A stretch of DNA of 64,000 nt from a virus, in IMG/VR virus record IMGVR_UViG_3300042888_001941, positions 72,435 to 136,434 of that record, one strand, 5' to 3'. The translations under genes and the position numbers were made by a program. Position 1 is the first letter of the stretch; each line of letters starts with the position of its first letter. Positions 5,774-26,477 of the stretch are shown here, in pieces. The notes beneath the pieces were generated by a model. That model saw only the letters and a list, made by a program, of their open reading frames with translations. It had not been told where the DNA came from and ran no database searches.

Positions 5774-8700
5774 GTGCCTGTACCAAATTGGTCTGAGGAT
5801 GTAGTCACCCGCACAGTCGTCGGTCTCTACCTCAGCGCTCGTGGAATCCCAGGAGTCGGCACAGTAACATTTACTCCAACAACAACTGTCTACGATTCAG
5901 ACTCTGCAACAGTTTTCACATCTGCAGCAACTGTAAGCTTAGACGCTACAGGTCAATTTTCAATAGATCTTCCAACAACTGACAATCCGCTGCTTAGCCC
6001 GACAGGTTGGGCCTACGAAGTTTCAATTCGTATCAACGGAGTTCGTCCTCAAGTTCTGCGTGTGTACTTGCCAGCAGGCAACGGAAGCAACGTAGACCTA
6101 TTTAGTTCTATTGGCGCTTTGTCATCTGGCACGACATCAGGAGCAGTAAGCGCATCAACAACAAACCGTGGACCTATTGGTCCTGCTGGTGCAGTAGGCG
6201 CAACAGGCGCAACTGGCGTAGGTTCAACTGGAGCAACGGGAGCAACTGGTCCAGCTGGCGCTCCTACAGGAGCAACGGGTGTAACTGGTGCAACAGGCGC
6301 TGGCGTGACTGGAGCAACTGGCGCAACTGGTTTAACAGGAGCAACTGGTCTCACAGGTGTAACTGGTGCAGGCGCAACAGGAGCAACTGGTCTAACTGGT
6401 GCTACTGGTGTAACAGGCGTAACTGGGTCTGTCGGTCCAACAGGTGCGCAAGGAACTTCAATCAATGTTATTGGTACAGTTGCAAACACTGGATCTCTTC
6501 CACCAACAGGCGCGACTAACGATGCATACATTGTCACCGCAGACGGTGATCTTTATATCTGGGATGGATCTGCTTGGACTAGCGTAGGTCAAATTGTTGG
6601 ACCTGATGGCGCACAAGGAGCAACTGGTCAAACAGGCGCAGTTGGTAACACGGGTGCAGTTGGTGCAACTGGTCTAACAGGAGTAGCTGGTTTAACGGGC
6701 GCGACTGGTTTAACTGGAGCAACTGGCTTAACTGGTGTAACAGGCGCAGGTGAAACAGGTGCAACTGGTGCAACTGGTTTAACCGGAGCAACAGGTGCAA
6801 CTGGAGTAACAGGCGCGACTGGTGAAACTGGTGCAGCTGGTAACACAGGCGCTACTGGTGTAACTGGTCTTACAGGAGCAACAGGTGTAACAGGCTTAAC
6901 AGGTGCAACTGGTGTAACTGGTGTAAATGGTTTAACTGGTGCAACAGGCGTAACTGGTCTTACAGGAGCTACTGGCTCAACCGGTCTAACCGGAGCAACA
7001 GGTGCGACTGGTGAAACTGGTGCAGCTGGTAACACAGGCGCTACTGGTGTAACTGGTCTTACAGGAGTAACAGGCGCGACTGGTGAAACTGGTGCAGCTG
7101 GTAACACAGGCACTACAGGTGTAACTGGTCTTACAGGAGCAACAGGTGTAACAGGCTTAACAGGTGCAACTGGTGTAACTGGTGTAAATGGTTTAACTGG
7201 TGCAACAGGCGTAACTGGTCTAACAGGTGCAACGGGCGCTACTGGTTTAACCGGAGCAACTGGAGCAACTGGTGTAACTGGCTCTACAGGAGCAACCGGA
7301 CCTACAGGTGCAACAGGCACGAGTGGAATCGTAAGTGTTAGTGGTTCACTTAATTACGATACAGGCACAGGTATTCTTTCTCTTGACGAAGGAATTGCTG
7401 GAGGACTAGCAACACTTGATGTTTCTGGTGTAGTTCCTGATGAGCAGCTGCCTACAGACATCGTGCGCAGTGACGGTCTTAATACTTCGTTAGAAGACTA
7501 CATTCCTCTTCTACAAAAGGGTGCAACTGGCGGCGTTGCGTCGTTGGATGTCGACGGCAAGATCATTACGTCTCAACTTCCCGCGCTTGCAATCACTGAC
7601 ACCTTTGCAGTTAGCACTGAAACAGCGATGCTTGAGCTTTTGGTTGAGATTGGTGATGTCGCAATACGCTCAGACGTAAGCAAATCATTTATCTTTGCGT
7701 CAGACGCGACTAGCATCTCAAGCAAGGAAATCGCTTCTAACACCGCGATTATTACAACAGTAACTGACCACAACTTAGAAGTTGGAGATAAGGTAGTCAT
7801 CTCAGGTGTAGATGCTACGTTCAATGGTACATACACTGTCAATGGTGTTACAACAGCAAGAATCTTTACATACGCAAAGACTGCAACTAACACAGGCCCT
7901 ACTGCTGTAGATCCAGTTGGATCTCTCATCAGTGCAAATAACTGGCTTGAACTTCTTTCTCCTGCAGTTACAAATGGCGCTACTGGAGCAACAGGCGCAA
8001 CTGGTGTTACTGGCGCAGGAGCAACTGGCAGCACAGGTGCAACTGGTTTAACGGGAGCTACAGGCGCAACTGGTCTCACTGGTGCAACAGGCGCAACGGG
8101 CCCGACAGGTCTAACTGGCGCAGATGGTCTAACAGGAGCAACTGGTTTAACAGGAGCAACTGGTGCAACTGGTTTAACAGGAGTAACGGGCTCAACAGGA
8201 GCTACTGGCCCAACAGGTGACAACGGAGTATTTTCTACAGCAGAAACAACTGCGCCAGTAGGAGCAGAAACTGGTGACGTTTGGTTTGATCCAAGCTCTG
8301 GAACAATGTTCGTGTACTATGACAACTTCTGGTTGGAAGCTTCGAGCAGTGCGTTAGGTGAGACTGGTCAAACAGGTGCGACTGGCGCAACCGGTCCTAC
8401 TGGAGCAAATTCAACTGTAGCGGGTCCAACAGGAGCGACGGGAGCTGGTGCAACAGGCTTAACTGGTGCAACTGGTCTTACTGGTGCAACTGGTGCAACT
8501 GGTTTAACAGGAGCAACTGGTGCTTCAGCGTCTGACCTAACTGCATGGTCAGCTTACACACCAACGATTACATCTGACACTGGCACATTCACTCTAGGCA
8601 ATGGCACATTAACTGGACGATACAAGCAAATAGGAAAAACTGTTTTCTTCCATGTAAAACTTGTCTACGGCTCAACAACAAGTCCAGGCAATGGGCACTG

Positions 8701-8950
8701 GAACTTTAGTCTTCCAGTTGCAGCAGAAAACTCAAACTATACTTTCTCTGCGTCAATTCTTGATGATGGAGCTTCTTGGTATGGTGGCATAGGAAATGGC
8801 AACTACACAGGTTCAACTACAAGCTTTGCAGTAATTATTCCTGGCACAAATGCTGCTGTCACAACATGGGCAGTAGTTGGTAACGGTGGTCCGTTTACAT
8901 GGGGCGCTGCTGATAACATTACAATCTCAGGAAGCTACGAAGCAGCGTAA
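5774..8950 (+). CDS. Collagen-like (G-X-T) fibre protein, 1058 aa
   Basis: Long [12 protein letters not shown] triplet runs separated by globular modules ([42 protein letters not shown]), with a C-terminal WSAYTPT...[10 protein letters not shown] beta domain. Confidence 0.85.
6803..7221. repeat. ~158 bp near-identical direct repeat (6803-6960 and 7064-7221) in the collagen region
   Basis: Same sequence at offset 261 with about 2 mismatches. A partial third copy lies at about 7004-7067. Confidence 0.8.
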
Positions 8951-9040
8951 TTTAAGCGCAGTTTATACCTCTATCACCTTCTTCTGGTTAATATAGAATA
9001 GCGCTTGGGAATCTCTCCCACTCGAGTGAAATGAGACTAC

Positions 9041-24526: not shown

Positions 24527-24573
24527 CGCGTGTAAATACAACATTCTTTAGTAAAATAGTGTAAGGTAGTACC

Positions 24574-25614
24574 ATGAAAGTAGCTGCCTACGCCATCGCG
24601 TTGAATGAAGAAAAGCATGCTGCCCGCTGGGCTGAAACCACAAAGGGCGCAGACTTCCGCCTTGTGTGTGATACTGGATCCACTGATAGAACCGTTGAGA
24701 TCCTTCGTGAGCATGGCGTAATCGTTCATGAAATATCTGTAAAGCCTTGGCGCTTTGACGTTGCTCGTAACACCGCACAGAGTTTACTTCCTAATGACGT
24801 AGACGTATGCTTGTCACTTGACATGGACGAGCTTGTAGATGAAAACTTTTTTGATGAGGTTCGCAAGCAGTGGATTCCAGATGCTAACAAAGGCTGGTGC
24901 GATTTTGACACAGGTCACGTTTGGTTAGGTTGTCGTTTACACGCGCGTCATGGTATGTATTGGAAGTATCCAATTCACGAGGTATTCGTTCCGTCGCTTG
25001 ATACACCGATTAGAAGCATAACAATTACTGGAACTAAGATGTATCACAAGCCGGATGACACAAAATCACGCGGACAGTACCTACCTATGCTTGTTGCCGC
25101 GTCAAAAGAATTTGGAGAAGATCACCGCATCTGGGTCTATCTTACTCGCGAATACATGTTCTATAAGATGTGGGACCTAGTTCTATCAAGTGCTGAAAAA
25201 GTTCATGCGTTTAGTAAGGACTGGTATGTTGAGAGAGCTGCGGTGTGTCGTTGGGCAAGCGAGGCTTGCCGTATCCTTGGTCAACCTGAGACTGCAATGG
25301 TGTGGGCAGATCGCGCAATTGAGATTGATCCTTGCGGTGAAAATTACTTTGAGAAGGTTCGTTGCTACTATGAGCGCGGCGACTGGTCAGGCATTTGGGA
25401 AACATCCAAGATAGTTGCTCGCTGCGAAAAAACAAGTCACTATCTTTCAAGTAAAGATCTGTGGGAATGGCGACTCTACGATATGCAGGCTCTTGCAGCG
25501 CACAATCTGGGAGATAAGCCTAAGGCAATTAAGTACGGAGAACTTGCAATAGAAGGTAATCCAGTAGATCTACGATTAAGAAACAACCTAGTATTCTACA
25601 AACAAGGGATCTAA
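24574..25614 (+). CDS. GT-A (GT2-like) glycosyltransferase with C-terminal TPR repeats
   Basis: YAIALNEE, CDTGSTDRT, WRFDVARN, LDMDE (DxD), W.YPIHE; helical TPR-like C-terminus. Confidence 0.88.
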   Translation: MKVAAYAIALNEEKHAARWAETTKGADFRLVCDTGSTDRTVEILREHGVIVHEISVKPWRFDVARNTAQSLLPNDVDVCLSLDMDELVDENFFDEVRKQWIPDANKGWCDFDTGHVWLGCRLHARHGMYWKYPIHEVFVPSLDTPIRSITITGTKMYHKPDDTKSRGQYLPMLVAASKEFGEDHRIWVYLTREYMFYKMWDLVLSSAEKVHAFSKDWYVERAAVCRWASEACRILGQPETAMVWADRAIEIDPCGENYFEKVRCYYERGDWSGIWETSKIVARCEKTSHYLSSKDLWEWRLYDMQALAAHNLGDKPKAIKYGELAIEGNPVDLRLRNNLVFYKQGI

Positions 25615-26477
25615 TGGAGCAGCCAATTGTATTCGTTGCTCTACTTGCAAAACAAAAAGCGCAGGTATTAAACTTCTTCCTAGAAACACTTGACGCGTGG
25701 GATTACCCTAAGGACAGAATTCATATCTACATCCGCACGAATAACAATACGGATAACACCGAGGATATTCTTGCTGACTGGATTGGTCGCAACGTACAGT
25801 CATACCGCAGCGTTGCGTTCGAGACACAGGACGTAGCAGAGCGAGTGCAGGATCTTGAGGTTCATCAGTGGACAGGTGAAAGATTTAGAGTTCTTGCAAA
25901 GATTCGTCAAGAAAGCTTACGCCAATGCTTACTCACAGACGCGGACTATTACTTCGTAGTAGATCTAGATAACTTCTTATACCCAGACACTCTTAAGGAA
26001 ATGGTTAAACTTCAACTTCCAATTGTAGCTCCGCTTCTTAGATACGCTATTGCTGGAGGAGATCATGCGGATATTCCGACTGAGGCAGCAAAGATAGAAG
26101 GACACCAAGGACAGTTCTATGCAAACTATCATCACCTTGTAGATGACTACGGCTCGATTGTAGCAAACGACACATACTATAAAATTCTTGACCAAGCAAT
26201 TAAAGGTCTTATTGAGTGTGACTGCGTGCATTGCACGTACTTAATTAAGCGCGAGTACATTGAACGCCTTAACTACACCGAGGAATCTGATCGTTGGGAG
26301 TACATGGTATTCTCAGAGTCTGCACGCAAGCAGGGTATTCCTCAGTACCTAGATAATCGACGCATCTGGGGAGTACTTACACTTACAGAGAACGAGAAGG
26401 CGTGTCGCTGGTGGATGGATCGCCTTAAGGATCCAGCAACTCAAACTGACCTATATCTTAACCGAGCGCTAGACTAG
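25614..26477 (+). CDS. GT-A glycosyltransferase resembling the N-terminal domain of procollagen galactosyltransferase (COLGALT1) and PLOD
   Basis: PIVFVALLAK, DYPKDRI, NNTDNT..IL..W, W...R..LAKIRQ.SL, ADYYFVVDLDN, DTL, IVAPLL, YANY, VHCTYLI occur in the same order as the COLGALT1 N-domain motifs (recalled from memory). Confidence 0.75.
   Translation: MEQPIVFVALLAKQKAQVLNFFLETLDAWDYPKDRIHIYIRTNNNTDNTEDILADWIGRNVQSYRSVAFETQDVAERVQDLEVHQWTGERFRVLAKIRQESLRQCLLTDADYYFVVDLDNFLYPDTLKEMVKLQLPIVAPLLRYAIAGGDHADIPTEAAKIEGHQGQFYANYHHLVDDYGSIVANDTYYKILDQAIKGLIECDCVHCTYLIKREYIERLNYTEESDRWEYMVFSESARKQGIPQYLDNRRIWGVLTLTENEKACRWWMDRLKDPATQTDLYLNRALD

Follow-up and report, generated by a model that had tools for sequence, protein, structure and literature searches.

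A coupled pair of glycosyltransferase-like genes linked to threonine-rich collagens in a phage, its relatives and bacteria

Threonine O-GlcNAcylation of a bacterial collagen, by an enzyme that joins a GT-A-type glycosyltransferase (GT) domain to tetratricopeptide repeats (TPR), is already known. SgtA of Clostridioides difficile is described as a soluble protein of 358 amino acids (aa), with the GT-A domain at residues 1-260 and the TPR at 262-358; its gene lies beside bclA3, and in vitro it transfers beta-O-GlcNAc onto Thr of the BclA3 collagen repeats (PMC7157674). More generally, according to a review, glycosylation is mostly absent from prokaryotic collagens, and Thr is the commonest residue in the Y position of their Gly-X-Y (G-X-Y) triplets (PMC8968730). 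Among the proteins of animal and mimivirus collagen glycosylation, human COLGALT1 has a GT1 domain that is reported to bind UDP-galactose (UDP-Gal) and Ca2+ without a direct catalytic role, and the BLAST search with GT1 described in the same paper found only animals and giant viruses (PMC12003778). Here we analyzed a 64-kb stretch of viral DNA (bases 72435-136434 of the 136,434-bp record IMGVR_UViG_3300042888_001941; hereafter the window), in which a block of collagen-like genes ends in two coupled genes. The first encodes a 346-aa protein with GT-A and TPR parts (GT-TPR) and the second a 287-aa relative of the COLGALT1 GT1 domain (GT1-like). Comparison of sequences, structural models and described enzymes suggests that this pair probably O-glycosylates the Y-position Thr of the phage's own collagen-like fibres, a cytoplasmic reaction that would precede assembly or accompany it.

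The fibre and GT genes occupy a separate plus-strand block (4431-26477), in which four genes are collagen-like (Table 1). All four pass the family cut-off of the Pfam Collagen family PF01391 (195, 150, 120 and 36 bits, with a cut-off of 27.2). Counted within runs of at least four G-X-Y, they contain 357 triplets, and Thr occupies the Y position in 275 of these (77%). Ser is found there five times, Pro once and Lys never. The X position is mostly Ala (155), Leu (64) or Val (43), and the longest uninterrupted run has 64 triplets. The N-terminal 80 residues of the 722-aa protein match the tail-collar family phrog_3449 independently of the repeats, and an N-terminal tail-collar motif is common to the 722-, 481- and 119-aa proteins. 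An earlier, sequence-only reading of this stretch had described the triplets as overwhelmingly G-X-Thr with essentially no Pro or Lys in Y, and the counts agree on both points.

The same reading held that the cluster ends in two coupled GT-A genes, the first of them with a GT2 plus TPR architecture. The two genes are on the same strand, the stop codon of the first overlaps the start codon of the second by one base (TAATG), and the pair closes the plus-strand block. In the model of the 346-aa protein (predicted local distance difference test (pLDDT) 94), a compact GT-A fold with strands up to residue 158 is followed by ten helices (residues 169-344), in keeping with the proposed architecture. 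Pfam matches to GT2 and TPR all fall under the curated cut-offs. The DTGSTD and DxD motifs (D83, D85) are invariant across 34 aligned relatives. When the model was searched with Foldseek, the sole full-length matches were the glycocin S-glycosyltransferases ThuS and SunS (E 7e-15 to 3e-13, template-modelling score 0.59-0.64, identity 12-17%); the others were to designed TPR proteins or only to GT2 domains. Among PDB sequences, phmmer gave the flagellin glycosyltransferase GmaR as the best match (E 0.001).

Judged by published description only, the phage GT-TPR and SgtA are alike in size, in their GT-A plus TPR build and in having a collagen gene with Y-position Thr (PMC7157674). They differ in that SgtA acts alone on a spore protein, whereas the phage enzyme is coupled to a COLGALT1-GT1-like protein and its presumed substrate is a phage fibre. 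SunS, ThuS and Listeria GmaR share the order of GT-A followed by TPR and also act on peptides or proteins, but their substrates are bacteriocin Cys/Ser or flagellin rather than collagen repeats.

The second gene had been likened to the N-terminal domain of COLGALT1, a likeness that proved to span the whole domain. By phmmer, the 287-aa protein matches only four COLGALT1 constructs among PDB sequences (E 4e-17, residues 2-143) and, weakly, LH3. A profile built from 32 relatives aligns with the complete COLGALT1 GT1 domain (E 1e-45; profile positions 4-243 against residues 24-265 of the 9evj chain), and also matches LH3 (E 3e-21) and mimivirus R699 (E 5e-10). For the AlphaFold model (pLDDT 94.7), both Foldseek and VIA-align rank COLGALT1 GT1 first. 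VIA Z scores are 28-31 for COLGALT1 GT1 (root-mean-square deviation 2.3-2.6, 250-257 aligned residues), 26-27 for LH3 residues 293-541, 22 for R699 residues 250-455 and 21.5 for yeast Mnn9, as against about 17 for ordinary GT2 enzymes (SpsA, TarP, TarS). By profile and model comparison, the 287-aa protein is a homologue of COLGALT1 GT1 and of the accessory (AC) domain of LH3 and R699, and is nearer to these than to generic GT-A enzymes.

Residues D117 and D119 of the phage protein align with human D166 and D168, E229 aligns with human D265, and D247 aligns with a human Cys. We counted conservation over 152 domains from 150 clusters at 50% identity: D47 is kept in all 152, D117 and D119 in 150 each, H206 in 147, E229 in 144 and D247 in 132 (with Cys in 14). 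The family has 855 and 827 matches in two protein libraries, and its Pfam coverage is marginal (Glyco_tranf_2_4 and Anp1 only). Some chains also bear GT25, GT4, methyltransferase or sulfotransferase domains. In 5 of the 30 relatives scanned, GT25 comes directly after the GT1-like domain in the chain order, and the phage open reading frame (ORF) is without such a fused catalytic domain.

COLGALT1, LH3 (PLOD3) and R699 all belong to collagen glycosylation, and their domains share with the phage protein the fold, a clear homology and an aligned DxD motif. In animals and mimivirus, the domain is a non-catalytic part of hydroxylysine-glycosylating enzymes, whereas the phage protein stands alone and has D247 where the human domain has Cys. 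Window scans gave no match to a lysyl hydroxylase or to GT25. Animal-type hydroxylysine chemistry was rejected on the absence of Lys from the Y position in all 357 triplets of the presumed substrates.

The two GT-like genes keep together in related genomes. Of 60 related viral loci of the phage's lineage, 57 have GT-TPR and the GT1-like gene as neighbours, and two of the three exceptions are cut contigs. The order is that of the window in 52 of the 57 paired loci; in the other five the GT-TPR gene is on the opposite strand about 640 bp away. Four further loci of the lineage show the same pairing. Outside the lineage the two domain types also occur within one chain: with a GT-TPR profile, we found both in 49 of the 150 cluster representatives of the GT1-like family. 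The match usually covers profile positions 7-345, and in 45 of the 49 fusions the GT-TPR domain is N-terminal of the GT1-like domain, as in the phage gene order. Pairwise BLASTP of the phage GT-TPR against two fused proteins had aligned the first 60-100 residues only, and it was the profile search that revealed the whole domain. Because both types are fused in relatives, these sequence comparisons argue that the two proteins work together. A predicted complex of the 346-aa and 287-aa proteins, computed from the two family alignments, scored 0.00, which decides nothing either way.

The sequence-only reading also named co-occurrence of such enzymes with G-X-Thr collagens as a check, and co-occurrence was found in bacteria as well as in phages. 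We sampled 79 bacterial loci with a GT1-like gene from the Alpha-, Beta- and Gammaproteobacteria, the Bacillota and the Chlamydiia (at least three phyla), including Mesorhizobium, Methylobacterium, Methylobacter, Rhodoferax, Paenibacillus, Bacillus, Parachlamydiales and many metagenome-assembled genomes (MAGs). The two domain types are fused in 49 of these loci, and a separate GT-TPR gene lies nearby in 9 others. In 51 of the 79 there is a collagen ORF at a distance of up to 10 kb, and in 46 of these 51 Thr fills at least half of the Y positions. For instance, Thr is found in Y in 577 of 582 triplets in one locus (L122) and in 624 of 646 in another (L167). The median distance from transferase to collagen is 1.2 kb, and 41 of 46 distances are at most 3 kb. 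As a control, 37 arbitrary 20-kb stretches were taken from 8 of these genomes, and none holds a collagen ORF (Fisher p ~1e-12, a value that overstates independence because many of the loci come from related Alphaproteobacteria). All 12 bacterial collagen ORFs that were scanned pass the Pfam Collagen cut-off; two of them carry DUF4347 and one a phage collar domain. Separately, a contig from a Parachlamydiales MAG (L134) has six tandem collagen-like genes of about 380 aa, with Thr in 20-31 of 47-53 Y positions, at 3-10 kb from a stand-alone GT1-like gene and with no GT-TPR nearby.

In the phage's own lineage, a collagen ORF lies inside the fetched flank in 25 of the 60 loci, many of the flanks being short; a flank of 10 kb would miss the large collagen genes of the window. 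Among whole records of the lineage, 13 of 14 have collagen genes, and the one without them is a contig beginning with the GT pair. Because these phages are related, the lineage records count as one observation. We therefore turn to other phage lineages, represented by 67 loci in which the GT-TPR gene (35-56% identity) occurs without a GT1-like gene. In 54 of the 67, GT-TPR comes after a same-strand collagen ORF that is dominated by Thr and lies within 5 kb, and in 36 the distance is within 100 bp; the corresponding distance in the window is 7 kb. The collagens of these lineages have Thr in 3445 of 4665 Y positions. In seven of the 13 negative loci, the available sequence before the GT gene is shorter than 2.5 kb. 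In one locus (L222), the collagen/GT-TPR pair is located between a major head gene, whose PHROG is unlike that of the window, and more structural genes. Phage DSL-LC01, from a cultured-lake record (OQ999401, 86184-117224), has collagen genes, an annotated tryptophan halogenase, GT-TPR and WhiB in that order, and no GT1-like gene. Its replication module carries a second GT and a UDP-galactopyranose mutase.

On the basis of these homologies, folds and enzyme fusions, and of the genomic tie to Thr-rich collagen genes in phages and bacteria, we propose the following mechanism. The GT-TPR enzyme would recognise the G-X-Thr repeat through its TPR arm and move the first sugar from a UDP-sugar onto the Y-Thr hydroxyl, as SgtA does on BclA3; this initiating role is assigned by analogy with SgtA and SunS. 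The GT1-like enzyme would cooperate, most likely by adding a second sugar and alternatively as a sugar-nucleotide-binding partner. We infer the substrate, the order of the steps, the sugar and the catalysis by the second enzyme, as well as the benefit, which could be helix stability, shielding from proteases or immunity, or receptor binding. In Riftia cuticle collagen, the triple helix is stabilised by glycosylated Y-position Thr. Many other phages and bacteria carry this trio, and Thr-rich microbial collagens are therefore probably sugar-coated.

Several observations weigh against glycosylation of the collagen fibres by the pair. The support is comparative throughout. The GT pair of the window directly follows Gly-rich genes, with the nearest collagen gene 7 kb away and the large ones at 12-19 kb. 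Where the GT1-like gene stands alone (19 viral loci, 39-47% identity), no collagen ORF and no tblastn match to GT-TPR was found within 10 kb; of five whole records of these phages, four contain collagen and three GT-TPR. In the record G004, GT-TPR follows a collagen gene with Thr in 96 of 113 Y positions, and against this the collagens of G001 and G003 are Gln-dominant, G003 being without GT-TPR. In the two jumbo-phage records examined (Alexandra and NCTB), distant GT-TPR relatives (26-27% identity) stand beside a DNA ligase gene, with no annotated collagen nearby. Only 69 of 50,697 deposited phage genomes have a relative of GT-TPR, and a tblastn search of the same genomes with the 287-aa protein gave no match. 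Collagen-like fibres probably also exist in phages without these enzymes, because PHROGs holds several collagen-like tail-fibre families. Finally, the solved relatives of the 287-aa protein (COLGALT1 GT1, LH3 AC and R699 AC) are all described as non-catalytic (PMC12003778, PMC12279948), and the binding site is strictly conserved in the non-catalytic human domain too.

These last points bear on the alternative that survives best, in which the 287-aa protein is not an enzyme. It would then serve GT-TPR as a sugar-nucleotide-binding accessory or scaffold, and the module would add a single sugar. The sequence-only reading had itself cautioned that the human domain may be non-catalytic, which accords with the report on GT1, where ligand binding is described without a catalytic role (PMC12003778). 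The matches to LH3 (293-541) and R699 (250-455) likewise fall in the accessory domains as described in PMC12279948, and the GT1-like domain of the relatives is usually fused to another GT. We nevertheless regard an accessory role as unlikely. D247 is kept in 132 of 152 microbial domains where the human protein has Cys. Moreover, 21 of the 79 bacterial loci have a GT1-like gene without GT-TPR within 10 kb, and 7 of these 21 still have a collagen ORF; lone GT1-like genes also occur in phage relatives.

In a second alternative the target of the pair is other virion proteins, either the Ser/Thr-rich Gly_rich_2 paralogues upstream or subunits of the capsid or tail tube. The six Gly_rich_2 genes that directly precede the GT pair encode proteins with 22-26% Ser+Thr, and a Gly-rich gene of phrog_2295 is also found near the collagen/GT-TPR pair of L222. 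In mycobacteriophages, phage GTs glycosylate capsid and tail-tube subunits. Set side by side by description only, those systems resemble the window in being actinobacterial phages with their own GTs beside structural genes, but their targets are capsid and tail-tube extensions and not collagen fibres. We consider other virion proteins an improbable target: the element common to unrelated phages and to the bacterial loci, which were surveyed for collagen and not for Gly_rich_2 genes, is instead the Thr-rich collagen gene, often within 100 bp of GT-TPR.

It is very improbable that the target is not a protein at all, namely a host cell-envelope polymer (as a block to superinfection) or phage DNA: this is the usual interpretation of GTs in phage host-recognition regions as given in PMC7029224, the PHROG family of the 346-aa protein is labelled auxiliary 'beta-1,4-glycosyltransferase', the window encodes a weak thymidylate-synthase homologue, a dCMP deaminase, a kinase-like protein and a C5 methylase, and distant GT-TPR relatives stand beside DNA ligase in Alexandra and NCTB, but the whole-protein fold matches of GT-TPR are peptide glycosyltransferases, both phage proteins are without a signal peptide or membrane segment, and bacteria, in whose genomes the module is likewise linked to collagen genes, contain no phage DNA as a target.

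In the literature on these enzymes together with phage or bacterial G-X-Thr collagens, we found only SgtA/BclA3 and no description of the module itself. Novel features appear to be a collagen fibre of a phage as the presumed target, the coupling to a microbial relative of COLGALT1 GT1 and the LH AC domain, the wide range of phyla and phage types in which the trio occurs, and the link that this suggests between animal collagen glycosyltransferases and microbial Thr-rich collagens. Tentatively, the GT1/accessory domain of every animal and mimivirus collagen glycosyltransferase could be a degenerate member of a large microbial family that ancestrally glycosylated Thr-rich collagen with a GT-TPR partner, a possibility that we hold with less than even confidence. 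If so, the association of this domain with collagen substrates would extend from bacteria and phages to animals, and most Thr-rich bacterial and phage collagens would be glycoproteins, against the statement in the review cited above (PMC8968730).

The proposed fibre glycosylation leads to the prediction that the common Y-position Thr of prokaryotic collagens is glycosylated in many cases, by no means only in the spore proteins of Bacillus and Clostridioides. GTs in phage host-recognition regions are usually taken as modifiers of the host surface or of DNA, as described in PMC7029224, and the module points instead to glycoprotein fibres, which would have consequences for the phage's host range, its stability and its recognition by the immune system. 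Through the module, the GT1/AC domain of human COLGALT1 and LH3, itself non-catalytic, is also connected to abundant microbial proteins that stand alone and are open to expression and assay.

Table 1. Features of the fibre and glycosyltransferase block and the gene that bounds it (coordinates in the window)
Feature	Position	Strand	Matches and motifs
Collagen-like fibre gene, 1058 aa	5774..8950	+	PF01391 E 1e-58; PHROG tail-fibre families; 154 triplets, 124 with Y-Thr
Collagen-like fibre gene, 722 aa	9041..11209	+	PF01391 E 2e-44; 103 triplets, 77 with Y-Thr
Collagen-like fibre gene, 481 aa	11327..12772	+	PF01391 E 5e-35; 81 triplets, 59 with Y-Thr
Six Gly_rich_2 paralogues with small Ser/Thr-rich partners	14003..24526	+	PF21722 / phrog_2295; block surrounds the 119-aa collagen gene
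Short collagen-like gene, 119 aa	17132..17491	+	PF01391 E 5e-9; 19 triplets, 15 with Y-Thr
GT-A + TPR glycosyltransferase (predicted), 346 aa	24574..25614	+	phrog_13126 E 3e-68; DTGSTD and DxD D83/D85
Stand-alone GT-A protein (predicted), 287 aa	25614..26477	+	Homologue of COLGALT1 GT1 and LH3/R699 accessory domain; DxD D117/D119
WhiB-like regulator gene	26469..26984	-	PHROG WhiB families; convergent, ends the plus-strand block

The Gly_rich_2 paralogues are likely to be fibre proteins as well and could serve the GTs as alternative substrates; we treat them as context rather than as demonstrated members of the module. Ser+Thr content across their block is 22-30%. The region 12809-24526 (+) looks modular. 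Genes for small Thr-rich proteins of 105-109 aa (12809-13126, 17495-17824) precede those for proteins of 186-291 aa (13126-14001, 17837-18451, 21261-21821), and after each of the latter come two genes for Gly_rich_2 proteins of about 450 aa. This arrangement looks like duplicated fibre cassettes. An NCBIfam scan gave no useful match for the two GTs or for the small proteins of the fibre cluster.

A fifth collagen gene lies beyond the window (record coordinates 65341-68718), encoding 1125 aa with 196 triplets, in which Y is Thr in 126, Gln in 28 and Lys in 7. Additional Gly_rich_2 genes are found near it, just beyond the window. Upstream of this collagen gene is a gene for a MobA-like nucleotidyltransferase (60791-61444 of the record), which could make an activated sugar. 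A serine recombinase gene (Resolvase E 2e-34; 69130-69789 of the record) is located between the fifth collagen gene and more Gly_rich_2 genes, and it might be a fibre-switching invertase.

The rest of the window has the layout of a phage genome, with a siphovirus-type head and tail module on the minus strand (45236-63996; portal/protease, major head, major tail, tape measure and Dit) and a replication and nucleotide-metabolism module at about 27000-45000. Of the 60 related viral loci, 59 gave a tblastn match to the WhiB gene (the exception is L059); the gene adjoins the GT genes in most of them and lies 3-4 kb off in the remainder. A DNA search with positions 24000-27000 against the 50,697 phage genomes gave a sole match, the WhiB gene of the Actinomycetia phage DSL-LC01. 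The WhiB-like gene and this single DNA match point to a freshwater actinobacterium as the host. Scans of 8000-27500 returned 22 sigma-70 promoter sites (21.3 expected) and 11 terminators (16.9 expected), and are silent on transcription units.

Two adjacent genes for 2-oxoglutarate (2OG)-Fe(II) oxygenases are found on the minus strand of the window (43370-43960 and 43948-44547). The second matches Pfam 2OG-FeII_Oxy_3 (E 2e-17), which we take to be a family of the prolyl-hydroxylase type. In the collagens of this phage, Pro is restricted to the X position (26 of 357 triplets) apart from the one Pro in Y.

Nucleotide-metabolism genes on the minus strand (39786-42309, 28304-29563 and 58-783) hint at non-standard DNA bases. 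The set includes the dCMP deaminase, the weak thymidylate-synthase homologue (Pfam E 5e-29) and the C5 cytosine methylase, as well as a 340-aa protein with a thymidylate-kinase-like start and a nuclease domain of the GmrSD_C type. Beyond the window and near the terminase gene, three genes (21585-22574, 23300-23866 and 11603-13429 of the record) encode a protein with a histone-deacetylase domain (E 1.5e-52), a fragment resembling a proteasome subunit and a ferritin-like fusion protein.

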